Assembly: GCA_041697335.1 (NCBI GenBank)
Contig: JBGUGD010000039.1
Location: 1-64,000 of the forward strand
Source of the DNA: Vampirovibrionaceae bacterium NZW_1234
Lineage (GTDB): Bacteria; Cyanobacteriota; Vampirovibrionia; Vampirovibrionales; JAGQHJ01
Direction of reading: 5' to 3'
Length of the DNA: 64,000 nucleotides
Notes under the pieces: model-generated
What the model was told of the DNA's origin: nothing
Database searches by the model: none
The model's input: only the letters and a program-made list of their open reading frames with translations
In this document: positions 4,268 through 22,273 of the stretch, in pieces
Layout of the letters: each line of letters starts with the position of its first letter
Position numbering within the stretch: the stretch's first letter is position 1
Translations under genes and position numbers: made by a program

Positions 4268-4483
4268 AGGCCGTTTTGTAGCGCTATTTTTGAGTACCTC
4301 ACCCCTGGGGTCGGCTTTTGTCTGCAAAGATTGAGAGTCTTAATGGTTTTACAAGATTTCAACAGGCAATTTTGAGCGCCTCGTTGTTTTTATTGTATTG
4401 AAACGTAATAAATCCCTTTGGGGCGTATTCAGCCCCATCCCCCTGGAAAAGAGAAGCGAACGACGAAGAGAGGCCCCCTGGAG

Positions 4484-5110: not shown

Positions 5111-6265
5111 TTATCCCTTGGCCAAGGCAACAGCCTCTTGCTGGCGAAACACATCTCGAATTCGGGCCGCCTCGGCACGCAAGCGAGCCTTGGGGGTCTG
5201 AGGCTGCCAGTCGGGCAGGCGAGAGGCGGGGTCTGCCGGAACAAACTGATACACGCTGGAGGCAATGACGCGTGGGTTGGTCAAGAGACGCCGATACAAA
5301 GCAGGGATAGCCTTAACCCATGACGCACCGGGCCGGGGCCGATAGGCCACCAAGTCCACCTGCACTTCCATGCGTCGGCCCTCCCAAGTCCGGGTCACCA
5401 CGGGCTTGGCCACCAGGACTTCTCCAATATGCCCCGGCTCTTCAAAGGCCATGCGATCCTGGTGAGTCAGTTTCAAGGGCATCCGTGCAAAGGTCTGGGC
5501 CCCTTTCAGGGCCCCCTGGTGGAGGACATCGAGAATCGTTCCGCCAAACACCGTCTGATGAATGTTTTGATCCGTGGCCCGGGTGACATACATGGCCTCC
5601 GTTCCAGGCAACACCTCGTGATCCTCAACCTGCATGGCACGGCGCTCCGGGGCCAGCTGCCATATTGCTGCAGCCTCGGCCTTGCGGTTCTGGCGCCGGA
5701 TCTCAAACTGGCGCAATAACACCGGATCCTGAAGCAGGGCCTTCACTGGCGTTTTTTTGTCTCCCACCAGGGCAAAGGTCAAATAGCCCTTTAAAATCAT
5801 CCGCCCGGGGCCTTTGGGCGACTCGCCCCCGGCGGCATCATGCGGTAGTTTGTTTTTGGCATACACCCCCAGCTCCAGTTCCAGAGAGGTTTGTCCCACC
5901 CCACTGAGGCGGCCTTCGGTCATCAGGTAATCAAAGGGCTGGGGTGTATCACCGTACTCCAGACGATCGGCCCCGGCAGTCACCATGGCCCTGTCCGGGC
6001 ACAGATCCCGGACCAACAAGGCCCCAGCCGTATCAATACGCTCGAAGGCCACATACTGATTGCTGATACCAGAACCCGTGGGCGGCACATAACGAGGAAA
6101 ATACACCCCGGCAGGCAGGGGATCGCGATGCGGCCTGGGCCAGGCCGAGCCCTCCGGCGTCGCCTGAAACCGAAGCGCATCGGGGGCGGTAGCGGACATC
6201 GGCCTTGTCCGGGGGAAAACCCGCGCCGTTCCAGGTACCGTTGTTGTCCTTGCCACCTGCATCAT
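5111..6265 (-). CDS. Double hotdog-fold acyl-CoA thioesterase-like protein with N-terminal extension
   Basis: DQNIHQTVFGGTILD and D...F..P..IGE.L motifs; degenerate first hotdog domain; GAGGA SD before ATG 6265. Confidence 0.75.
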   Translation of the reverse strand: MMQVARTTTVPGTARVFPRTRPMSATAPDALRFQATPEGSAWPRPHRDPLPAGVYFPRYVPPTGSGISNQYVAFERIDTAGALLVRDLCPDRAMVTAGADRLEYGDTPQPFDYLMTEGRLSGVGQTSLELELGVYAKNKLPHDAAGGESPKGPGRMILKGYLTFALVGDKKTPVKALLQDPVLLRQFEIRRQNRKAEAAAIWQLAPERRAMQVEDHEVLPGTEAMYVTRATDQNIHQTVFGGTILDVLHQGALKGAQTFARMPLKLTHQDRMAFEEPGHIGEVLVAKPVVTRTWEGRRMEVQVDLVAYRPRPGASWVKAIPALYRRLLTNPRVIASSVYQFVPADPASRLPDWQPQTPKARLRAEAARIRDVFRQQEAVALAKG

Positions 6266-8639: not shown

Positions 8640-9416
8640 CTAGGCTTTAAAGTTAATGCGGGGTGGCAATAAGCCTCGGACGGCCAACACATCCATACCC
8701 ACCATCCGGCCCAGGCGGTTCTGCTCGGCCAGCCAGTTTTGAAAGGAGTGATAATCCTGAAACGTGCGCAACGGCACATCCAACTGCCCGACAATCAAGC
8801 CCTTTTCATCATGCTCCTGAAAGGCATTGCTGGTCTTGCCCGTGGCAAAGACCATGGAAAAGCTCTTCATCTCCGTCACCGCACCTGGCGATACGGCAAA
8901 AGCCTGGTTGGCCAAGCGCTTGGACTTTACGACTGTCATCCCGGTCTCCTCCCGGGTTTCCACGTCGCCTTGTTTAAAAATTTTCGCCATCTTGTCGCCA
9001 CCGGCCAGACTCTTGGTCACGGCAGCCCGGCTGGATTTGTCGCCGGTCGGGTCATCGTTCATCACCAGCCCACCGGGGACTTCCACCACCAGTTTCCCCA
9101 TGGCCCCGGGCTTTCGAGTGACCAGCAAACGAACGAAAAGCTTTCCCTTCTTGTTTCGAATGATGGGCAACGCATGAACGGCACCCAGCTCCGCGTTATC
9201 CCGGTGTGCTACGGTCCAGTTCTTCTCCGGGGGCAAGGCATCGGTCACCCCAGGCACACCACCCGGGACATTGTACAGGGCCAAAAACGGGCTTCCGCCC
9301 GGAAGACGCTCAATACCCTTGCCCAAGGCATTGGTCTGGGTTAATGACCGGGGGGAAGGGACCAACACCGGTTGCTGCGGTGCCCGTGACGGGCGCATGC
9401 CAAATCGTACGTCCAT
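8640..9416 (-). CDS. Nudix hydrolase (ADP-ribose pyrophosphatase-like) with an interrupted Nudix box
   Basis: AVHALP...LLV.R......VEVPGGL...ETREETGM and SPG..TE motifs. Confidence 0.75.
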   Translation of the reverse strand: MDVRFGMRPSRAPQQPVLVPSPRSLTQTNALGKGIERLPGGSPFLALYNVPGGVPGVTDALPPEKNWTVAHRDNAELGAVHALPIIRNKKGKLFVRLLVTRKPGAMGKLVVEVPGGLVMNDDPTGDKSSRAAVTKSLAGGDKMAKIFKQGDVETREETGMTVVKSKRLANQAFAVSPGAVTEMKSFSMVFATGKTSNAFQEHDEKGLIVGQLDVPLRTFQDYHSFQNWLAEQNRLGRMVGMDVLAVRGLLPPRINFKA

Positions 9417-9652
9417 ATCGTCTCAGTTCCTTATCCAATCGCGCTACCCCAACCCGGATAGCTTTTACCACAATACGGAAGAGAACCCTCTCAAGCCACA
9501 AATTTGCGCATTTTTCCGGCCCTGATATCCAAATTGTTACAATCATCACAGGTATGAATATTTGTAAAGAAACGCCATCCCCGTGGGCAATTCAATTCAG
9601 TGCGCCGTGTTTGTTGGCCTGTAGACCCGTTGGCGTACAGGACACGGACAGA

Positions 9653-10921
9653 ATGCATATACCTTCCCATTTTGGCGCTTCTACCGCCCAAACCCCACCC
9701 TCTCGAAACAATGTAACCCGGGCAAGTAGGCTTCCGGCTACCCGCTTTGGTAGTACCCGGCCAACAGCAGCCCAAATGATTGCCCCGGAGATTATCGGGG
9801 CCAGCCCAGTCCTGGTTAAAGTGCTGGATGCCTTGCGAAAAGTGGCCAACACCGATGTCACGGTCCTGTTGCTGGGCGAAACCGGGGTGGGCAAAACAGC
9901 CTTTGCCAAGGTCCTGCATGCATTAACGGCTCACCGGGCTAATGGCCCCTTCGTTCCGGTGAATTGCGGCGCCGTCAACGAAAACTTAGCCGAATCCGAG
10001 TTTTTCGGCCACAAAAAAGGCGCTTTTACCGGAGCTCAGGCCGATCGAACGGGGCATTTCGTCCAAGCCCACGGCGGCACTCTGTTTTTGGATGAAGTGG
10101 GAGAAACACCGCTCCCCATGCAAGCCAAGCTGTTAAGCGCTTTGGAAGAAGGCCAGGTGACACCTGTCGGCTCCTCCACTGCGATGGCCGTGGATACCCG
10201 GATTGTGGCCGCCACAAACAAAGACCTGAGAGCCGCCACCAAAGACCGGAGCTTCCGGGCGGACCTGTATCATCGCCTCAAAGTATTTCCTATTGCGATT
10301 CCCGCCCTTCGGGATCGGCATGACGATATTTTGCCCCTAGCCCAGCATTTTCTGACCCAGAAACACCAGGCCTTGAGTACCAAGCTTCCCGACTTTAAGG
10401 CGCCCACCCAATTTAGCACCGAAGCCCTGACACTGCTGAAAGAGTATCATTGGCCGGGCAACATCCGAGAATTGAAGCAAGCGGTGGAAAGCGCCCTGAT
10501 TCTGGCCCAAGGGGAGTCCGAAATTCAGCCCGAACACCTGCTGGCCAGTTTGGATGGCGAGTTCAACGAGGAACCGGCTCAAGCCGAAAGCCCGTCACCT
10601 GCCAGAAGCCTGCTTCAAAATGAGGGCCCCAAGATCCAACTGGCTCTGACATCGGGCCAACAAGCTACTGTGCGCCCCTTGGCAATCCTGTACGATGAAA
10701 TGGCTGTTGAGGCCATTCGCTTGGCGTTAGGCCAAACCCGCAACAGCAAGCCCAAAGCCGCCGAACTCCTCGGCATCAGCCGCCGGACCTTGGATAAGGA
10801 AATTCAACGCCTGGGCTTGAAAGGCACCCCGCAAGAAACCCATATCAGTGTACCCATGTCTGACGACGTTGCCGAGACAGACGATGCCAATGATACGCCC
10901 CCCTCGGCACATACCGGTTAA
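9653..10921 (+). CDS. Sigma-54-dependent enhancer-binding protein (AAA+ plus Fis-type HTH) lacking a sensory/receiver domain
   Basis: GETGVGKT, VNCGA, ESEFFGHKKGAFTGA, LFLDEVGE, RIVAATN, WPGNIREL, AAELLGISRRTL; ATG 9653 chosen as likely start. Confidence 0.9.
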   Translation: MHIPSHFGASTAQTPPSRNNVTRASRLPATRFGSTRPTAAQMIAPEIIGASPVLVKVLDALRKVANTDVTVLLLGETGVGKTAFAKVLHALTAHRANGPFVPVNCGAVNENLAESEFFGHKKGAFTGAQADRTGHFVQAHGGTLFLDEVGETPLPMQAKLLSALEEGQVTPVGSSTAMAVDTRIVAATNKDLRAATKDRSFRADLYHRLKVFPIAIPALRDRHDDILPLAQHFLTQKHQALSTKLPDFKAPTQFSTEALTLLKEYHWPGNIRELKQAVESALILAQGESEIQPEHLLASLDGEFNEEPAQAESPSPARSLLQNEGPKIQLALTSGQQATVRPLAILYDEMAVEAIRLALGQTRNSKPKAAELLGISRRTLDKEIQRLGLKGTPQETHISVPMSDDVAETDDANDTPPSAHTG

Positions 10922-10942
10922 CCCTGTTGAGGATGTGATTGT

Positions 10943-13102
10943 ATGGACATTCGCTTGATGCCAGCCCAAATCTCCCTGGCCCCCGGGGCCCGATTCTCTC
11001 CCTTGACCTTTGGCGGGCTGCAAAAGAAACGAAAGGTTCAAACCGAAGCCCAAGAAGCCTCGGAACTCTTTGACGCCATCAAGAAACATCACCCCCGCCT
11101 GAGTGGGGACGAAGAAAAACGTCTGACCCGCCAACTGGTGACCAGCTACAACGAATTGGCCAAACTTTTCATAGACAGCGTGACGGCCAGCGCTCCGGCA
11201 GGACCGGATCAGGAGCAAATTCGCCAAGACGGCAGACTGCTTTCGGAAAAAATCACCGAAATCACTCAAACCGTTCATGCCGATCGTCTGAGAAGTGCGT
11301 CTCTCGTCCGGGAACGCCTTACCCAGGTTCAGGCCCTGGCGGCTGAAACCCTCAACAAGAAACAAAGCCAATTTGTCCGGGACACCCTGAGCCGCTTGAG
11401 TGTTAATGGTGATGGCCTGGTAAAAGCTTTGGGCAAAGAGGAGAAAAAGCAACTCCAGGTGATGATGGGAGGCTTGGTTCGCGCCCATAAAGATTCGGAG
11501 AATATGCCCCTCAAAACCGCCCTTGAAGATGCCCAAGAAACACTGAGGACCTTTATCGGCCTCGACAGCATTGGTCGCACCGGAGTGGTGTCCTTTATCA
11601 ACATGGAGTCCATGAAGCTCCTCTCTCGGATTAATCCTGTCCAGGGCCGTCGGCTCTGGGGAGAGTCCTACCAGGAAGGCTCCGAAGACGGGGACAAAGA
11701 CACTCCCAAAGAGAAAGGCAAACGTTCGCGAACTCCCCGGGGCATTTACAAGCTGGCTCAAATTCTGACCGAAGAACTGGAGACGCTCAACAAGGCCCGG
11801 CGGGAAAAGCGCCTGGCTGTTCTTCGCTCCGACAGCCCTGTCGATATGAATATCTATGCCTCTCAAGAACCTTTATTGGCGGTAATTCCGGAAGAAAACC
11901 GGGTCACGGCCATGAAGCTGGCCAAGGACCTGGTCAGTGCCAAAAAGCGCATTGCCGAAGGCAATCTGAAACTGGTGGCCAAACAAGCCCGGAAAAATAT
12001 GGGCCGTGGCCTGTCCTTCGTCGATCTCATCGGGGAAGGGAATGTGGGCCTGATTACGGCCACGGAAAAGTTCGACTACAACCCCGGCCACAAGCTTTCG
12101 ACCTACGCCACCTGGTGGATCAACCAATCTATCAAGCGCGCCTTACAATACCGCTTTTCGGTCCACCGCCCAGCCTACGTTGTGGAAGCAAATGGCTACT
12201 GGAAAAACCAGGAATCAACCTACTTTGGGCATTACGGCAAAACCCCATCGGCTATGCAGCTGGCCTTCTATACCCTTCACAACACCACACCCGAGGACAA
12301 AATTCTGAGCCAACTCGAGGCCTTCCAGGGCAATCTGGCGGATCTGGGCAATTTCCCTCGCTCAGGCAAAGCCATTACGGAACTTTTACTGGTCTTAAAA
12401 CTTCAGGAGACCGAAGCCCGCCTCCAAAAGAAGCTGCACCGGATGCCTACGGTCGACGAATTGGCTGGCGATAAAACCCTGGGGCTCAAAGCCACGAAGA
12501 TCAAACATATCCGCAGCAGCGATGCCTACCTTGAGGACCCCAATCCGACACTTGTCCGGATCATCAACGCCCAGGCTGACTACCAAAGCCGCTTCAAGAG
12601 TAAGCCCAGTAACGAAGAGCTGGCCTACTTCATGACCTTTAGACGTCAACCCACCGAAGCCAAGCTGGAACCCCTGATGGCTATTATCCAAAACTTCAAT
12701 GCCATCGAAAATTATCGTAGCAGCAACCGGGCCGAGACCCATTTTTCGGCTATGGGCCGCACGGAACAGGAAACCGATGAGCCGCAGTCGGCCGAAAATC
12801 TGTTGGAAGAAGCGGATGGCGAAAGCCCCGAGGACAAGGTCACCTTTGAGGATCTCAAAGAGGCCATTAAGACCCACCTCCTGAGATGGCTCAATGAGCG
12901 CCCTCGGGAAATTATCATGGATCGCTTCGGCATTGACAAAGGCGATCCCATGACCCTGGAAGACATTGCCCAAAAATACAAGCTCACCCGTGAGCGCATT
13001 CGCCAGATGGAGCAAAAGGCAATCCTGAAGCTCAAAACCGTCCTGGCCTATAAACCCCAGATTGCCCGGGCTTTTGAGGCCTTCGTCCAGACACATCAGT
13101 AG
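10943..13102 (+). CDS. Divergent RpoD-family sigma-70 factor (719 aa)
   Basis: Region 1.2-like [11 protein letters not shown]; region 2 [27 protein letters not shown]...EKFD...[12 protein letters not shown]; region 4 RFG.....[24 protein letters not shown]. Confidence 0.9.
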
Positions 13103-15726: not shown

Positions 15727-18700
15727 TTATTGCAACTTCAACAATTCAATTGCCAAAGCTTTTACAGAATTAATTTGCTTATAATCATCAGAATACTCAA
15801 TTTTAAATGGCTCGGGCATTTTAACAATTTTAAAGTTCTCACTCTTTTTAAACTTATCCTCAAAGTCCAAATAATATTCACCAGGAGGTAAATTGCCAAA
15901 ATAGAAATAGCCATCTTCCATTGTTTCTGTCACTTGAACAACTTGCTTATCCTTGTTTATCAAAAGCAGCCGGATATAGGGAAATGTTGTCGAATTAGCA
16001 TCTTTGGGCAGAACACTCTTAATGGAAAGCTTACCACTAGCTGTACTCCCAGTCGCCTGAATCGGGACCAGTGCTTTATATAAAACCGGCTTTTTAATAT
16101 TAATATACATATCATCCGGAACTTTTAACGTTAAAGGTAATGTGTTGGAATTTACAGCAACACGGTGTTTTCCCAAAGTCAGATTAGAAACCATGAGTTC
16201 ACCTTGCTTATCGGTTTTCCCTTCAGGCTTATAATCAATATTCAGATCAATATCGGGCAAGAGGGGTTCCTTTTCAGAACGTTTCCCGTCAGCATTGTAA
16301 TCCAAAAAAGAAATCAGCTGCAGTCTTGCCTGTTTAGTCATGTTAGGACCACCAAACCGTAAGGAGTGCCCAACAAAACCAATTAAATCGGTAAAATTTG
16401 TAGTGACTTCATGTCGAACTGTCGATTGTAACTGTCTATCCACTTCCTGAAAGCCAAACCGAAACCGATTATAAAAGTACCCCAAACCAATCTTCCGGCC
16501 ATTCTTGGCTGTGTAATTAAACCTCATACCAATTCTATCGTTAATTTGGAGAGAGTTATAACTCAATTGAATCAAAGGCTCAATTTGAAATCTACCGATA
16601 TTCAGACTGGCCTTGATATACGAAAAATCCAGGACATTGGAATGCGTTGTACCAAGCTCAAGTGTATGTTTTTTTAGGAAGGGTAATTGTATTGAATTTG
16701 CCAGCCCTTTCTGAACGAACTCGTTTTCCAATACAATGGGAGTTGAGATTGGGTTTGCGGGATCGGGAAGTGTAATATTATTTGTGCTTTGGTTAAATAA
16801 ACGTAAATTATAGACCCAATTATTGCGGAAGGTTTTACTATAATTTAGATTCAACGATTGAGAAATAAATTCGTTCAGATTATTCGAACCAGCACTGCGA
16901 TTAAAGTTGAGATTTATCCGACCATTCTGGTTTAGGTTATAGCTGAGTATTCCATTTACTAACACAGCATTGACTCTTCCTCCCCTAACCAAATCAGATA
17001 GATTGCTTTGGTTTCCGGTAAGATTAAATTGATATGTTAGTGGGCGCTTAATTGAGTTCCCTGTCACTGATAATTTAATGCCTCGCCTATCATACAAGCC
17101 AGTGAGATTTTGTGTACTGGAGGGCGAATAATAATCGGTATCGTAATGGAAGAAAGACAAAGCCGATTTCAAGTGGCCATTATCATACTCAAAATTAATA
17201 ACCCCACTCTTTCCTAGTGCTGTATCGTCCAAAAAGTTTTGCGCACTGGAACGTAAGTTATACCGACTTATCCCAAAGTCAGATAAAAGAGAGACTTTCT
17301 CGCTCAACCTCCGATTAAGCGAAATTCCCAAGGCTTGGCCTTGGAAAAAATCAAAGTTGCGAATATAACTGGTTGAACCATTTAAAGGAACAAAGGGAGA
17401 CGCAAAGGTATTTTGGAAGAAACTTTGAGCTGGCCCCAAAATCGAATCATTCGCAAAGGAAACACCTAAAGTGGTTTTCTCGCCCAAGCCATAATAATAT
17501 CGCCCCCCCAATAATAATTTAAAAGATTGAGGAAGCAATAATGGGTTGTCACGGCTTGGTTGTGGGGGCGTAAACCGGGGAGGCGAGATACCTGCAAAAG
17601 TTGACCAGGCAGAAGTTTTAGGCAGTAAAAAGTTATTTCCGGAAATATAAGTTAGCTTGGACTTTAACGTTTGTGGCCCCTCATCGGACCTTGATATAAC
17701 CCTAACATCGCCAATATCTTTCGAGGTCAGAGTGACATCCGTAAAATTATACTTGTCATTGGCGTTAATTCTTTGGCGTTCTTCATTGTTAATCACTAAT
17801 ACGACTTCACCAGGTTGCTCAATTTTTCCATGAATCACATAACCTGGAGTATCGCTAATTTTAGCAGGTGTTAATGCATTTTTTGAGGCTAGTTTAATAC
17901 CCCAAGTCGGTAAGTTAGGACTGACAATGGGAGAAAGCCCAGCATCAAGGCTACCAATTTTTGTTTGAAAATCAGAGTTTTCTTTAACAAAAGCCCAGTC
18001 CACTGCTTGTAAGGTGGTTCGATTATTAAAACTTAGAAACTTTGGCTCCAAACTCCAATCCCATCCTCCGAAGCCGCCCGATAAACCAAATGAGGTTGTT
18101 GCGTTTCCTTGAGACAAATACCGAAAATCGCGAGCAATCGCGCCACGACCAGGGGGAATAGTACTATAGATACCCATATTTCGCTGTTGAATCGACAGTC
18201 GTTCAAGAAATTGACGCGATTCTTTAAGATCAATATTATTTTCTTCTTTTTTAGTGGCCTTCCTTGTTTGGGCTTTAATGTTACCGGATAATGGATTAAT
18301 TGTGAGCACTAAATTCTTCTGATCGTAAACCGTTTTAACATCAAAAATCGTCTCAAAGACCGCTTGGTCAATAATAAGATCTTGCGCATAAGAAATCCCT
18401 TTAACTTCAATCAAAGGGTGGGAATTATTAAGGATAACCTTACCATTTACCTTAATTTGTTTAGTGCTTAGATCGATGTTAATCACATCTTGATTCGGTG
18501 TTGTTAGGGCTCGGTAAATTTTTTTATCAGAATCATAGGAGCTTTCATGGCCCAAAAGCTTTCCGATAGTATTGACCGGTATCCCAATACTACCATCAGT
18601 ATATGAGTAGATTTCAACACTCTCATCAGACCGGTTAAAAATTTTAACACTGACAATATTTAACGAACCTTGACTTAAATCTGTAATTTCAGACTTTTGT

Positions 18701-19617
18701 TCCTTTTTCTCAAGACTATCTGTATCAGCAGGTACAGGTTCAATGTGCAATGGCTGAATTTCGTTTGGAGATGATGAAGTCAGAGGTATATTCGCACTGG
18801 AACCCTCACTGGTTTCTACATCCAAGAAGTTTATAGGCGAAGTCATTTGTTCAACTTCAGGTATTGTAACGGAAGTGCCTTCACTCACCAGAACGTCCTG
18901 GTTCTTGGCAGATGTGTTGGTAGATAAAGGCTCATAATGAATAGATAGTAACGAAGGATGGTGCTCAGCGGGTTCAGTTTTTTCAAGACCCAGCTTAACA
19001 GTTTGGGGAACCAAAGTATATTCAAATATATCTGAGGACGAGCGAATATTGGTTAAATCGTATTTGCTTAACCTTTTTGTTTTTGCCGACTTCTTCTTTT
19101 TATGTGGAATTAATGCTTGTTGAAGCATGGAAGAGACCGCATTTTCAGAATTGGAAATACCAGACTGAGGAAAAAAATAATCATGGTTTACATAAACCGA
19201 CTTGCTTGAGAGAGAGATAGGTGATGATACCTTAGGTGTAATCCACTCGGGATCCGAGGACAGAGCATTGCCAAAAGTCAGAAGCGGGTTTAAGGCAATA
19301 GAGAGAGCAAATGAACTGCTTAACCCAATTTTAAGAGTCTGCTGTTGAAGTATATCCGGATCAATAGTGATCAAACTTTCAACAGACAAAATATCTTGTA
19401 CAGCTCTGACTTCAAAATCAACTTCAAAAAAAGACTTAGCTTGCAGGCGCTCTTGACAGTGACGATAGGTATTCACACCCAATATCTGACTTAAAATACA
19501 AATTTCATAGGTAAGAGAGAGCCTCAGTGGCAACCTCTGGCTTTGCACGTTTTCTTTACTCTTAAACAAGAGATTGAGTAATCCTTCCGCTAGCACAGCT
19601 AAATTCTCATCTACCAA
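15727..19617 (-). CDS. Large usher-like outer-membrane protein with C-terminal SdrD-B/carboxypeptidase-regulatory-like repeats
   Basis: Long run of amphipathic beta-strands, YYYGL...TLG motif, FLDYNADGKR...EP and DGYFYFGNLPPGEY repeats; directly downstream of a PapD-like chaperone; start uncertain. Confidence 0.7.
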   Translation of the reverse strand: MVDENLAVLAEGLLNLLFKSKENVQSQRLPLRLSLTYEICILSQILGVNTYRHCQERLQAKSFFEVDFEVRAVQDILSVESLITIDPDILQQQTLKIGLSSSFALSIALNPLLTFGNALSSDPEWITPKVSSPISLSSKSVYVNHDYFFPQSGISNSENAVSSMLQQALIPHKKKKSAKTKRLSKYDLTNIRSSSDIFEYTLVPQTVKLGLEKTEPAEHHPSLLSIHYEPLSTNTSAKNQDVLVSEGTSVTIPEVEQMTSPINFLDVETSEGSSANIPLTSSSPNEIQPLHIEPVPADTDSLEKKEQKSEITDLSQGSLNIVSVKIFNRSDESVEIYSYTDGSIGIPVNTIGKLLGHESSYDSDKKIYRALTTPNQDVINIDLSTKQIKVNGKVILNNSHPLIEVKGISYAQDLIIDQAVFETIFDVKTVYDQKNLVLTINPLSGNIKAQTRKATKKEENNIDLKESRQFLERLSIQQRNMGIYSTIPPGRGAIARDFRYLSQGNATTSFGLSGGFGGWDWSLEPKFLSFNNRTTLQAVDWAFVKENSDFQTKIGSLDAGLSPIVSPNLPTWGIKLASKNALTPAKISDTPGYVIHGKIEQPGEVVLVINNEERQRINANDKYNFTDVTLTSKDIGDVRVISRSDEGPQTLKSKLTYISGNNFLLPKTSAWSTFAGISPPRFTPPQPSRDNPLLLPQSFKLLLGGRYYYGLGEKTTLGVSFANDSILGPAQSFFQNTFASPFVPLNGSTSYIRNFDFFQGQALGISLNRRLSEKVSLLSDFGISRYNLRSSAQNFLDDTALGKSGVINFEYDNGHLKSALSFFHYDTDYYSPSSTQNLTGLYDRRGIKLSVTGNSIKRPLTYQFNLTGNQSNLSDLVRGGRVNAVLVNGILSYNLNQNGRINLNFNRSAGSNNLNEFISQSLNLNYSKTFRNNWVYNLRLFNQSTNNITLPDPANPISTPIVLENEFVQKGLANSIQLPFLKKHTLELGTTHSNVLDFSYIKASLNIGRFQIEPLIQLSYNSLQINDRIGMRFNYTAKNGRKIGLGYFYNRFRFGFQEVDRQLQSTVRHEVTTNFTDLIGFVGHSLRFGGPNMTKQARLQLISFLDYNADGKRSEKEPLLPDIDLNIDYKPEGKTDKQGELMVSNLTLGKHRVAVNSNTLPLTLKVPDDMYINIKKPVLYKALVPIQATGSTASGKLSIKSVLPKDANSTTFPYIRLLLINKDKQVVQVTETMEDGYFYFGNLPPGEYYLDFEDKFKKSENFKIVKMPEPFKIEYSDDYKQINSVKALAIELLKLQ

Positions 19618-19724
19618 TTCGGCCTACTCTCTCACAAAATATTATGGCAGGCATCGAAAAAGTTACACACCATTGAAAAGATGAGTTTCTATCACTCAAT
19701 AACAGCCAGAAAATTTAAATACTG

Positions 19725-20603
19725 TTAGATCGAAACTTCGCACTGCTGGGTAAGAGTAGTATTAACCTTTCTCTCATCCGAAAGGCGTAACTCAAGGCGA
19801 TATTTACCAGCAGCATAAACATAGTCGGACGTTTCCGGAACAGCTATATCTAATGGTTCATTTTTTTTAGGTAAAACCACGAAAGTAGATTTACTCAAAT
19901 CTAAAATACCAAATGGTTCAAAATTATTGTTGAGTTGCTTTTCAATAATGACTCGAGGCTGTAAGCGAGCGGTTTTATTGCCTGCATTAAGTACTTGGGC
20001 ATTAATCAGAAAACTTTTTTGATTCGCAGCAAAAGAACATCTCGTCAAAGTGACAGATGGTTGAGATTGAAGCTCACCCTTAAACAAATAGCCGACATAG
20101 GCAAAATTAGGGACAGGTAAAACCCGAATCTGTGTTGAATTGGTATCACCATTATACTTATTCACCGATTGAACGAAGTCTGGAGTCATAGACTGACGGA
20201 ATGTTAATTTAATACGGTACTCGCCATCAGGAATAGCTTCAGGAAAACGCAACCCATAACGAACGACTTGCTTTTCTTGCGGTCCTAACTTAAATTCTGA
20301 CGGAGAAATAATAATATTTTCCAAAATTCCTGATTTAACATTATCAGGAACATCTATTGGTTTTTTATCAGTCATTGTCCATTCGGAGGGAAGCACCTTA
20401 ATACTAATCATCCCCTCGCTAGTATTCTTTATGGTCACTTGGCTGGATACAAAATTATCTTTTACTGTTAATTCTTCACGTAAAGGAATAATTGAATACG
20501 CTGCTTTCACCACATAAGACCAGGAAGGTAGCATTAAGATAGCACCGCCGACAACAGCAAGGCACCCCAAGCAAAACAATTTATGCATTCGGCTACACTT
20601 CAT
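19725..20603 (-). CDS. PapD-like periplasmic pilus chaperone
   Basis: Signal peptide, IIPLR start, ISPSEFKLGPQEKQVVR, PDGEYR, N.GN..AR motifs. Confidence 0.8.
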   Translation of the reverse strand: MKCSRMHKLFCLGCLAVVGGAILMLPSWSYVVKAAYSIIPLREELTVKDNFVSSQVTIKNTSEGMISIKVLPSEWTMTDKKPIDVPDNVKSGILENIIISPSEFKLGPQEKQVVRYGLRFPEAIPDGEYRIKLTFRQSMTPDFVQSVNKYNGDTNSTQIRVLPVPNFAYVGYLFKGELQSQPSVTLTRCSFAANQKSFLINAQVLNAGNKTARLQPRVIIEKQLNNNFEPFGILDLSKSTFVVLPKKNEPLDIAVPETSDYVYAAGKYRLELRLSDERKVNTTLTQQCEVSI

Positions 20604-20647
20604 ACTCTCATCCTTTTTTTATTTTTCACTACCACAGTATCCACAAC

Positions 20648-21094
20648 TCAATATTGAATTGTGAGGTTAATTGTATCCTGAGCAAACCCAGACACAGCTG
20701 GGGTAAAGTTGTATTGTAGAGTACAGGTTACAACGCCTTCAGCAAAATTGTGAGCAAACGTAGTTGTCCCACCAGTAAATAAAGCATTATTAGGCATTCC
20801 ATCCGAATATTGACAGGAACTGGAGGATGTTTGATCAAAACTTGCGCCAAGAGCAGTGGTTTCAGGAGATATAAAGGTGATTGTTTCGGTTCCGCTTCCA
20901 GTAAGGGTGCATGAAATATATTGATAAGATAAAGGAACGCCTTTCGTTACAGAACCTAAATTAAGACCACTACATGCAAAATTATCAACTGCCGCCTGAG
21001 CGGTAAGAACCGGCCCACAAGAAACAGAACTTACTATTAACAACGTAACAAACAGTTTTTTAATACGCGCTATGAAAGAAGCCATTTGGGTCAC
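20648..21094 (-). CDS. Secreted Csu/SCPU-like pilus subunit
   Basis: Signal peptide (AQA), LNLGSV, Cys pairs, C-terminal DTINLTIQY strand. Confidence 0.65.
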   Translation of the reverse strand: MTQMASFIARIKKLFVTLLIVSSVSCGPVLTAQAAVDNFACSGLNLGSVTKGVPLSYQYISCTLTGSGTETITFISPETTALGASFDQTSSSSCQYSDGMPNNALFTGGTTTFAHNFAEGVVTCTLQYNFTPAVSGFAQDTINLTIQY

Positions 21095-21186
21095 AATTGC
21101 TTAAGACACATACTACATGGACTATACCATATTTTCAGGCACCATGGCCAAATTATCCGTCATATAAAGGAAATCTAGGAGCAGGG

Positions 21187-21603
21187 TTACTGTACTCCAA
21201 GCGCATTTGTATTGGTTGCGACCGTACTCGTGCTAGGCATCGAACACTTCAAACGATTTCTTGATTGGTCATTCACGTGACGGCAACTGAAATCATGCTG
21301 CTGTTCGGAAAAATGAGTTGATAGATCTACAAACTGCAGATCTACCCCGATATTCTCGGTTTCAACATCCGAGTTGCCCAGTTGTGCAATCCCTTCCGTT
21401 ACACACTCAATCTCGGTGAGAACATTATTTTTAATTTCACAAGTCAGCTGTTCAATTCCGGCAGGGACAATGGTAATCTCAAAAGAAGCCGATGAATCGA
21501 GGGTTTTAGCGACAGTTAAACCTGGGAATACTAACACCACAAGGACTAAAGCACATAGGCATTGCCGAACACACCACAAAAAACAGGAAACACGCAAGTT
21601 CAT
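21187..21603 (-). CDS. Secreted Cys-containing pilus subunit-like protein
   Basis: Signal peptide, ASFEITIV donor-strand-like segment, four Cys in the mature part. Confidence 0.6.
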   Translation of the reverse strand: MNLRVSCFLWCVRQCLCALVLVVLVFPGLTVAKTLDSSASFEITIVPAGIEQLTCEIKNNVLTEIECVTEGIAQLGNSDVETENIGVDLQFVDLSTHFSEQQHDFSCRHVNDQSRNRLKCSMPSTSTVATNTNALGVQ

Positions 21604-21712
21604 AAACAAACCCCTTAATGTCTTTATTTAATATAATAAAAACATTAAGGGGTTTGGAATTGCCCCCAAATTGTAAAATAATATTACAGGATTAGCATTG
21701 CTTTTATACCCC

Positions 21713-21748
21713 AAAAAATACACCTGACTGTATACAGCCAGGTGTATT
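21713..21748 (-). terminator. Rho-independent terminator after the putative major pilin
   Basis: Minus strand AATACACCTGGCTGTATACAGTCAGGTGTATTTTTT. Confidence 0.75.
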
Positions 21749-21784
21749 CTAAAAGCATCTTATGGGTTAAAGCACTTAGATAAC

Positions 21785-22273
21785 CTAAGCCGAAACCCAT
21801 ACAACGTTGACATCAATGGTGTCTGCACCACTATTGCCGGGGGTACCAGTCAGATCAACCGTCATCGTATACGTTTGCGCCGTTGGGTTGTTCCATGTAC
21901 AGTTGGTGGTATTGTTGCTACCCGAATTATCGCAACTGTCAACTTGTGGGGTATACGTGTTGCCGGCCGAAGAATTCGTAACATTAGGCGTACCAACTAG
22001 AGTCCCATTGTAGCCGGAATCAACGACAATAGAGCAAGAATACTGAAGTGCATTATCCCCAAGAAGCTGGCCTCTGGTAAAAGTGCCCCCCCCACCTTGG
22101 GTTACTGAACAGGAAGCACCACTAATGTCAAAGTCTTCAGCGATGGTAATAGAAAATTGTGTGGTTCCCGTCTCAGTGTTCGCATCAGAGAAAGGGGTCA
22201 AAAAGCTAATGGCCGTAAAAGCTGCAAATGTAAGGGCTAATTTAACTTTGGTTGCTTTAGATACATTTTTCAT
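21785..22273 (-). CDS. Probable major chaperone-usher pilin (Csu/SCPU-like)
   Basis: Strong SD AAGGAG, signal peptide (SDA), TQFSITI donor-strand pattern, four Cys, C-terminal GADTIDVNVVW; has its own promoter and terminator. Confidence 0.7.
   Translation of the reverse strand: MKNVSKATKVKLALTFAAFTAISFLTPFSDANTETGTTQFSITIAEDFDISGASCSVTQGGGGTFTRGQLLGDNALQYSCSIVVDSGYNGTLVGTPNVTNSSAGNTYTPQVDSCDNSGSNNTTNCTWNNPTAQTYTMTVDLTGTPGNSGADTIDVNVVWVSA

Follow-up and report, generated by a model that had tools for sequence, protein, structure and literature searches.

Why should a bacterium carry an activator of sigma-54 with an intact contact motif directly upstream of a strongly divergent sigma-70 factor, when no sigma-54 is found in its genome? 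The question is raised by positions 9653-13102 of a 64,000-nucleotide stretch (hereafter the window; contig JBGUGD010000039.1, assembly GCA_041697335.1) from Vampirovibrionaceae bacterium NZW_1234, a hot-spring member of the Vampirovibrionia related to predatory, non-photosynthetic cyanobacteria. Here, a gene for a sensor-less bacterial enhancer-binding protein (bEBP; the activator) is followed by a gene for a long sigma-70 derivative (the long sigma). A preliminary description made from the sequence had taken the two for a functional, possibly exported pair. Our analysis dissolves the pair, and we tentatively propose that both proteins are independently recruited, exported factors acting on the RNA polymerase of bacterial prey. 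The locus itself comprises the following features, with the methods behind each assignment in brackets:

9582-9615, + strand: promoter-like motif, 37 nt before the activator ATG, score 14.4 (motif scan)
9653-10921, + strand: activator, a sensor-less bEBP of 422 aa with leader (residues 1-35), AAA+ domain with GAFTGA (47-309) and Fis-type helix-turn-helix (HTH; 353-385) (Pfam and motif check)
9653-9757, + strand: activator leader, S/P/T/R-rich, with zero acidic residues ahead of its motif and ending in PATRFGS (leader score)
10922-10942, + strand: intergenic spacer of 21 nt with a GAGGA ribosome site and no promoter motif (sequence, motif scan)
10943-13102, + strand: long sigma, a group 1/2-type sigma-70 derivative of 719 aa (Pfam, alignment, model, structure search)
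10943-11017, + strand: N-terminal leader of the long sigma, a variant with ARFS and LTFG that the model shows as disordered (alignment, model)
12170-12712, + strand: three tandem sigma region-3 repeats, residues ~410-590 (profile matches)

Both reading frames, their common strand and the 21 nt between them stand as first described, and a contig of run X9 (10548-11158) bridges the junction of the two genes. Contigs aligned to the locus showed one variant letter. The matching sequence datasets are hot-spring and microbial-mat metagenomes, and the four examined represent at most two samples, possibly the source itself.

In the activator, Pfam matched Sigma54_activat (residues 47-214), the AAA lid (220-309) and the Fis-type HTH_8 (353-385) and no regulatory domain; upstream of the AAA+ part there are 45 residues and nothing more. 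GAFTGA, Walker A and B, both arginines of FRxDLxxRL and GNIREL are intact, so that the domain reading of the preliminary description is upheld by Pfam and motif check alike. In this architecture the activator resembles the sensor-less bEBPs PspF, HrpR/S and LafK (type Ic of Francke 2011, PMC3162934), which likewise consist of a GAFTGA-bearing AAA+ domain and a Fis HTH with no regulatory domain. It differs from them in that it is tagged by the leader, no sigma-54 was found in its genome or family, and no adjoining inhibitor gene was seen. Its closest database relatives are sensor-bearing bEBPs with 40-54% identity. Sigma-54 and its activators co-occur near-perfectly and both are absent from cyanobacteria, according to Francke 2011 (PMC3162934), which also gives an altered GAFTGA for two activator-only exceptions. 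An intact activator whose lineage has no sigma-54 would break this near-perfect genomic rule and hints at the type of prey.

The preliminary description had left the sigma complement of the genome to be looked up. In the source genome (G000; 3.70 Mb, 94.75% complete), a separate canonical RpoD is indeed encoded on contig C18, where it is cut at the contig end, together with three further group 1/2-like sigmas, FliA, a SigF-like and an ECF sigma elsewhere; rpoN gave no match by two Pfam families and one motif at this completeness. The activator thus combines the AAA+ motifs and the C-terminal Fis HTH of a sigma-54-dependent bEBP with a genome in which its cognate sigma was not found. Throughout the class, one of 251 genomes (G044; loci L051, L121) contained an rpoN match above the cut-off, a partial one, which is probably contamination. 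G044 also carries a proteobacterial-looking RpoD.

Among 61 genomes, bEBPs were detected in three, all within this family (G000 encodes two, and G001 and G004 a single one each; G001-G004 denote four other genomes of the family). None of the four proteins has a sensor domain, all have leader-like N-termini, and Walker A/B and arginine motifs are kept in 4/4; their loops read GAFTGA (activator), GSFSGA (second bEBP of G000), GAFTGT (G001) and GAFTGA (G004). In a tree from whose alignment 4 of 44 rows had been removed because the cut motifs were absent, the four formed one clade in 0% of bootstrap trees, and a single clade gave p = 0.454 in the approximately unbiased test, so that a single origin would be neither rejected nor supported by bootstrap. 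The second tagged bEBP of G000 (L048:9129-10826, - strand), which has the GSFSGA loop, appears by eye to have three C-terminal HTH repeats, of which Pfam scores one.

The long sigma is laid out as a weak leader, region 1.2 (residues ~40-70), a helical insert up to ~330, region 2 (339-402), three region-3 copies and region 4 (647-698). Region 1.2, the insert of ~260 aa and the variants DLIGEG and WWINQSI in region 2 had all been named before and are confirmed by Pfam, alignment and model; the three tandem copies of region 3 had been overlooked. Region 1.2 was assigned by alignment, and the top ESM Atlas matches are Sigma70_r1_2 clusters at 0.89, which is below 0.9 and a lead only. A region-3 profile built from 82 ordinary sigmas matched residues 422-443, 485-524 and 537-566 with 1.0 (a weak match), 15.5 and 7.5 bits. 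In the AlphaFold model (mean pLDDT 70.6), copies 2 and 3 reach 80-96 and copy 1 stays below 50. The insert is helical in this model and belongs to no known family. Foldseek searches with the model returned sigma structures only, with no structural match for the insert, and a homologue search with residues 400-640 found no match besides the protein itself.

With regions 1.2, 2, 3 and 4, the protein is a group 1/2-type sigma-70 that shares these regions and the fold with RpoD and RpoS, but it differs from them in the absence of an acidic region 1.1, the unrelated 260-aa insert, the three region-3 copies and a tenfold faster evolution. Nor is it a primary RpoD: besides the missing region 1.1, its 168 bits in the RpoD model fall short of the cut-off of 354, and it is not the only primary-type sigma of the genome. 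A full-length relative exists in G003 (684 aa, 26% identity), with three region-3 matches at corresponding places. The long sigma occurs in 2 of 49 genomes of the order, and the G003 protein is the only full-length relative both there and among 1.84 billion representatives, in which further multi-stretch matches are sigmas with duplicated segments. A related-locus search with the long sigma as query found none. Further long sigma frames in relatives were considered as orthologues and rejected, as they are ordinary RpoD-like proteins with N-terminal extensions.

Both long sigmas keep DLIGE, the W-W dyad, the following Q of region 2.4 and R, and the ERIRQ helix, elements with roles in core binding, melting and reading of the -35 box. 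Several residues of the region-2 melting pocket are altered. In a sigma tree (7 of 55 rows removed, including G000_C20a; no plastid SIG proteins included), the branches of the long sigmas measure 2.1-2.7 against a median of 0.23, i.e. evolution was about ten times faster, and because both branches are very long the origin of these proteins cannot be placed.

What, then, do the activator and the long sigma have in common with the rest of the genome? The first answer is the N-terminal leader. Among the 3026 gene calls of G000, RFG near N-termini was observed 132 times against 27 expected, and a leader matrix (score of at least 12) picked out 147 of 2072 long proteins when applied to residues 1-70 and 3 when applied to an internal window. 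In all, 190 genes are tagged, and their positions in the genome are clustered, with 38 adjacent pairs vs 11.7. The consensus, [S/P]-[P/V/L/I]-R-F-[G/S/A], lies at a median of residue 19. The leader is acid-poor and S/P/T-rich, also R-rich, with 3% acidic residues before the motif and 10.7% after it. N-terminal hydrophobic stretches are found in 2/190 tagged proteins compared to 408/2393 others, i.e. there is no Sec-type signal, and 54 of the 190 leaders have their motif within the first 12 residues. All three substrate patterns of type III secretion defined for P. syringae, which are reported as not absolutely required (PMC3338616), are present in 60/190 tagged proteins vs 148/2393.

The FG leader had been ascribed to both proteins of the locus, which is true of the activator (score 22.8, rank 7 in the genome, motif residue F32, three of the three type III patterns); the long sigma has a weak variant (3.1, one of three patterns), whose F23 and G25 are kept in the G003 orthologue. 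A relaxed form of the leader is found in 29/62 promoter-bearing genes outside the strict set vs 417/2359, and in 7/13 downstream operon partners of tagged genes vs 89/562. In relatives, for which loci were sampled and not whole genomes, the tag was present in 9/66 genes of G003, 3/29 of G001 and 0/52 of G004, in 1/40, 0/28, 1/36, 1/58 and 1/54 genes of the sampled genomes of family f3, in 0/91 of two f2 genomes, in 0/181 genes of Gastranaerophilales-like loci and in 6/1015 of other phyla. Judged by sequence, the behaviour of the leader suggests an export signal. A predicted complex of the leader (60-row alignment) with the cytoplasmic domains of FlhA2 and FlhB2 gave no usable answer (score 0.00). 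Leader variants were also seen elsewhere in the window: weak ones on two adjoining genes, DEDD exonuclease-like and PLD nuclease-like (45152-48603, - strand), and an LRFQ form on a thioesterase-like gene (5111-6199, - strand) that has a leaderless paralogue on contig C29.

The second answer is a promoter-like motif upstream of tagged genes, GCAA-N9-TTGAG-N4-TTT[AT][AT]T. Trained on half of the genes, it was recovered in 26/85 held-out genes vs 62/1727 others (p = 9e-16), and the three-block motif precedes ~100 genes genome-wide in G000. Exact-pattern counts were 42 in G000, 34-39 in G002-G004, 7 in G001 and 2-30 in others, with 0-4 in reversed-pattern controls. The activator's copy has the GCAA and TTT blocks and a degenerate middle block; the gene was part of the final training set. 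Since the spacer has no motif of its own, the long sigma is expected under, and probably read from, the activator's promoter. A generic scan for sigma-70 promoters and terminators performed at chance level. Three more features of the window belong to this set:

9479-9512, - strand: divergent motif copy before the NUDIX-like gene, score 22.3 (motif scan)
8640-9416, - strand: divergent leader-bearing gene starting MDVRFG, NUDIX-like by in-genome similarity, with no Pfam match (leader score)
4361-4394, + strand: further motif copy (motif scan)

The motif also precedes the G003 long sigma (11.4), the G004 activator (15.9), a G003 protein with region-4 repeats (15.5) and further tagged genes in G003, G006 and G008; in all, 11 of 20 tested genes had scores above 11. 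It is absent before the NAD synthetase gene of G024. As the motif stands before the long sigma in G003 and before the activator in G004, these sequences indicate that the two joined the regulon separately in different genera. Eight other sigma genes of G000 have neither tag nor motif. A leader shared by ~190 co-regulated proteins, besides the canonical RpoD elsewhere and the failure to find rpoN, agrees with the earlier view that neither protein looks like ordinary endogenous machinery. Candidate readers of the motif are the FliA-like sigma encoded directly behind flhB2 or its paralogue. The long sigma was rejected as its necessary reader, as G002 and G004 have 34 and 39 copies and no long sigma was found in them; a sigma-54 -24/-12 site was likewise rejected because the spacing misfits the consensus on both strands.

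The claim of a functional activator-sigma pair did not survive comparison within the family, as none of its four other genomes was found to contain both. G003 (91% complete) encodes the long sigma, with no bEBP match and different neighbours; G001 and G004 have activators in other neighbourhoods, with no long sigma found. None of the other three bEBPs adjoins a long sigma, and the arrangement has neither the co-occurrence nor the synteny across genomes of a conserved two-gene system.

The tagged proteins are bacterial-type by their Pfam families (149 of 190 scanned, 53 with matches, one of which, FliW, is likely a false positive of the matrix). They include enzymes of metabolism (citrate synthase, isocitrate and malate dehydrogenase, aldehyde and acyl-CoA dehydrogenase, PRPP synthetase, guanylate kinase, NAD synthetase), proteolytic proteins (Lon, ClpP, FtsH-like and ClpB-like ATPases, trypsin-like and other proteases, DegP) and RtcB, an RF-1 domain, GH13, GH77, SpoVR, DUF444, CheR-like, receiver, FHA and TPR proteins. 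Citrate synthase, malate dehydrogenase (MDH), Prs and Gmk are duplicate tagged copies, and BLAST found a leaderless paralogue for 41/190, some of which are mis-started tagged genes. Besides the long sigma, there are other tagged transcription-factor derivatives with multiplied DNA-binding domains, such as a ~1080-aa sigma-70 derivative with many tandem region-4 repeats (L089:7552-10782 on contig C8 of G000, 1077 aa; L261:2606-5866 in G003). One tagged G003 protein contains ankyrin repeats, a family with no match in G000. Tagged genes for SpoVR, DUF444, a large ORF and a ClpP-like protein are clustered in two genera (L071, G000 C5:198089-205961; L225:9740-16589, G003).

If the leader is an export signal, through which machine would it act? 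In G000, FlhA, FlhB, FliP/Q/R, FliI, FliH, FliF, FliE and the rod sets are doubled, and FlgH, FlgI, FlgK, FlgL and FliG are single-copy. The second set is distributed as follows:

G000 C32:8784-20950, C8:66046-69792, C29:178730-180600 and C30:50562-52826 (loci L102, L257): second flagellum-type export genes with no filament of their own

A FliA-like sigma follows directly behind flhB2 in 28/30 loci. Across the order, the second FlhA shows high conservation, and it is also present in families f7 (39/39 genomes) and f9 (8/9); flagellin was found in 0/15 of f7 and 0/9 of f9, and in 15/15 of f6, where FlhA2 is present in 0/15. In four f7 genomes, the second type is the only full-length FlhA. G052, G073, G106 and G168 (f7) have a truncated FlhA-family frame of ~500 aa beside the full second-type FlhA, with no flagellin in those tested. 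A type IV system has been proposed for V. chlorellavorus, which preys on Chlorella (Soo 2015, PMC4451040); VirB4 was not found in G000. Gastranaerophilales retain flhB, fliI and flgG without a full flagellum, and secretion has been postulated for them (bioRxiv 10.64898/2026.04.24.720558). Searches for CesT, which gave no match, and for nucleotide translocase had no positive control and are uninformative. Type III-like N-terminal patterns without a Sec signal and an export apparatus besides that of the swimming flagellum are thus both present, and the link from tag to apparatus is circumstantial.

How might exported transcription factors serve their producer? We suggest that an alternative sigma, encoded by the FliA-like gene beside flhB2 or by its paralogue, would switch on the tagged set at prey contact, and that the tag would direct the proteins to the filament-less export apparatus and through it into a bacterial cell. 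Once inside, the activator without an inhibitory domain would engage the sigma-54 holoenzyme of the prey constitutively, mis-activating or jamming it (domain roles as described in PMC7175178). The long sigma would compete for core RNA polymerase via regions 2 and 4; the additional copies of region 3, which bind DNA, would let it redirect or, more likely, block housekeeping transcription; as core-binding and -35 elements are kept, melting residues altered and extra copies of region 3 present, it would most simply occupy the core and clamp DNA. The two proteins would act separately on two sigma classes, with the shared operon reflecting co-regulation and not a complex. Induction on contact, export, the bacterial target and the action on polymerase are steps that we infer. 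The intact activator suggests sigma-54 bacteria as target over plastids. In a broader form, which seems possible to us if on the unlikely side, a filament-less type III machine of independent evolutionary origin would inject a whole bacterial toolkit into prey bacteria (proteases, nucleases, TCA, NAD and glucan enzymes), under one promoter and the R-F-G tag, including the constitutive sigma-54 activator, the triplicated-region-3 sigma and the region-4-repeat sigma.

Several observations weigh against this proposal. Predation by G000 is deduced from its kinship to predators. The leader of the long sigma fits the relaxed variant only, and 432 of 2782 genes score higher than its 3.1. The type III compositional patterns are non-specific and fit transit peptides, too. 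The tag has a far narrower distribution than the second export apparatus, and the apparatus genes checked are without the promoter motif, i.e. not visibly co-regulated with their presumed cargo. The motif is absent before the G001 activator (0.0) and before the second bEBP of G000 with its GSFSGA loop. Only 41/190 tagged proteins have a low-scoring paralogue. Lastly, the sole NAD synthetase of G000 is tagged (L238, C14:96263-98695), as is its orthologue in G024 of another family (L218:1094-3094), and therefore the producer itself can depend on tagged proteins.

The last point leads to an alternative that we consider unlikely, a growth-phase or developmental regulon in the cell's own cytoplasm, with the tag marking proteins for processing, degradation or localisation, the long sigma serving as a home alternative sigma or as a competitor of RpoD, and the activator working without sigma-54. 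Apart from the NAD synthetase, SpoVR, DUF444, CheR-like and receiver proteins in the cargo would suit such a programme, and the sharp compositional boundary at the motif would suit a cleavage site in a genome with several M16 peptidases. Sigma-70-dependent enhancer-binding proteins (EBPs) do exist (PMC6158489), and these atypical proteins (TyrR, HupR, HsfA, PhhR, NtrX, VpsR) likewise have an EBP fold without a working sigma-54 partnership; their GAFTGA, however, is altered, whereas that of our activator is intact. A home programme also leaves the duplicate tagged citrate synthase, MDH, Prs and Gmk unexplained, would have to accommodate eight other sigma genes without tag or motif, and has no need of the long sigma as reader, given the 34 and 39 motif copies in G002 and G004.

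It appears quite unlikely to us that the proteins are exported as captured passengers or blunt poisons, i.e. non-specific DNA binders or ATP drains not aimed at prey polymerase. Patchy occurrence (the long sigma in 2/49, activators in 3/61 genomes), very long branches, multiplied DNA-binding modules and the altered residues of the melting pocket are what one would expect of such cargo, but the long sigmas keep W-W, the region 2.4 Q, DLIGE and ERIRQ at 26% identity, and Walker A/B and arginine motifs persist in 4/4 activators.

Export into an alga with routing to plastid or mitochondrion, where the leader would double as transit peptide and the long sigma would work on the plastid-encoded polymerase, we regard as very unlikely. 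V. chlorellavorus does prey on Chlorella (PMC4451040). The acid-poor, S/T/P/R-rich leaders fit this route, the cargo shares functions with organelles (TCA enzymes, Lon, ClpP, FtsH-like, DegP, RF-1 domain, glucan enzymes), and the ankyrin repeats of the G003 protein might be read in the same sense, but no ankyrin family match was found in G000. We know of no target for an intact sigma-54 activator in plastids; cyanobacteria are without sigma-54 (PMC3162934). The preliminary description had named the imported sigma factors of the plastid-encoded polymerase, with their transit peptides, as a parallel, but the plastid reading is not supported as first choice: in 54/190 leaders the motif comes within 12 residues of the start, which leaves too little length for a transit peptide, and the long sigma scores 143 bits in the cyanobacterial against 168 in the general RpoD model, with no plastid-like affinity in these models or in the tree, which was built without plastid SIGs. 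An obligate pair, in which the activator remodels the long sigma into an enhancer-dependent sigma-70, would make sense of the operon, the large insert of no known family and an activator with no sigma-54 to serve, but is scarcely credible, as G003 has the sigma without an activator and G001 and G004 have activators among different neighbours, with no long sigma found.

The component parts of the proposed system are of known kinds, and their combination is not described in the searchable literature: nothing was found there on the tag or the motif, on these proteins, or on a sigma factor or bEBP being injected (subscription journals were mostly outside the search). A close counterpart is the effector regulon of P. 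syringae under HrpL and the hrp box, which likewise joins a promoter motif to an acid-poor, serine-rich signal on dispersed genes and a type III gate, but here the machine is flagellar-derived with rod genes and no filament of its own, R-F-G is fixed, and the cargo consists of bacterial cytoplasmic enzymes and transcription factors. Phage-encoded sigmas are made inside the host and TAL effectors target eukaryotic nuclei; both are foreign factors redirecting transcription of an invaded cell, and differ in delivery or target. The flagellar remnants of Gastranaerophilales are similar in their retained export genes, with no substrates, signal or regulon named in the passage on them in that preprint (10.64898/2026.04.24.720558).

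Elsewhere in the window (15727-22273, - strand), a 1280-aa protein with transthyretin-like C-terminal folds is encoded together with two signal-peptide proteins. By eye, this stretch resembles a chaperone-usher pilus cluster; its Pfam matches are all below the cut-off.

The mode of attack of Vampirovibrionia is unsettled, and the standing proposal is a type IV system. Our analysis sets beside it an alternative whose parts can be named: a candidate machine, a motif as address, a motif as promoter and ~200 cargo proteins. If true, no earlier case would be known of sigma factors and enhancer-binding proteins being injected in order to seize the RNA polymerase of another bacterium, and predation would have a new mode, in which one bacterium hijacks the transcription of another by delivering sigma factors to it. 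If the proteins are not injected, there is still a tagged regulon of 200 genes to be explained in an uncultured lineage.

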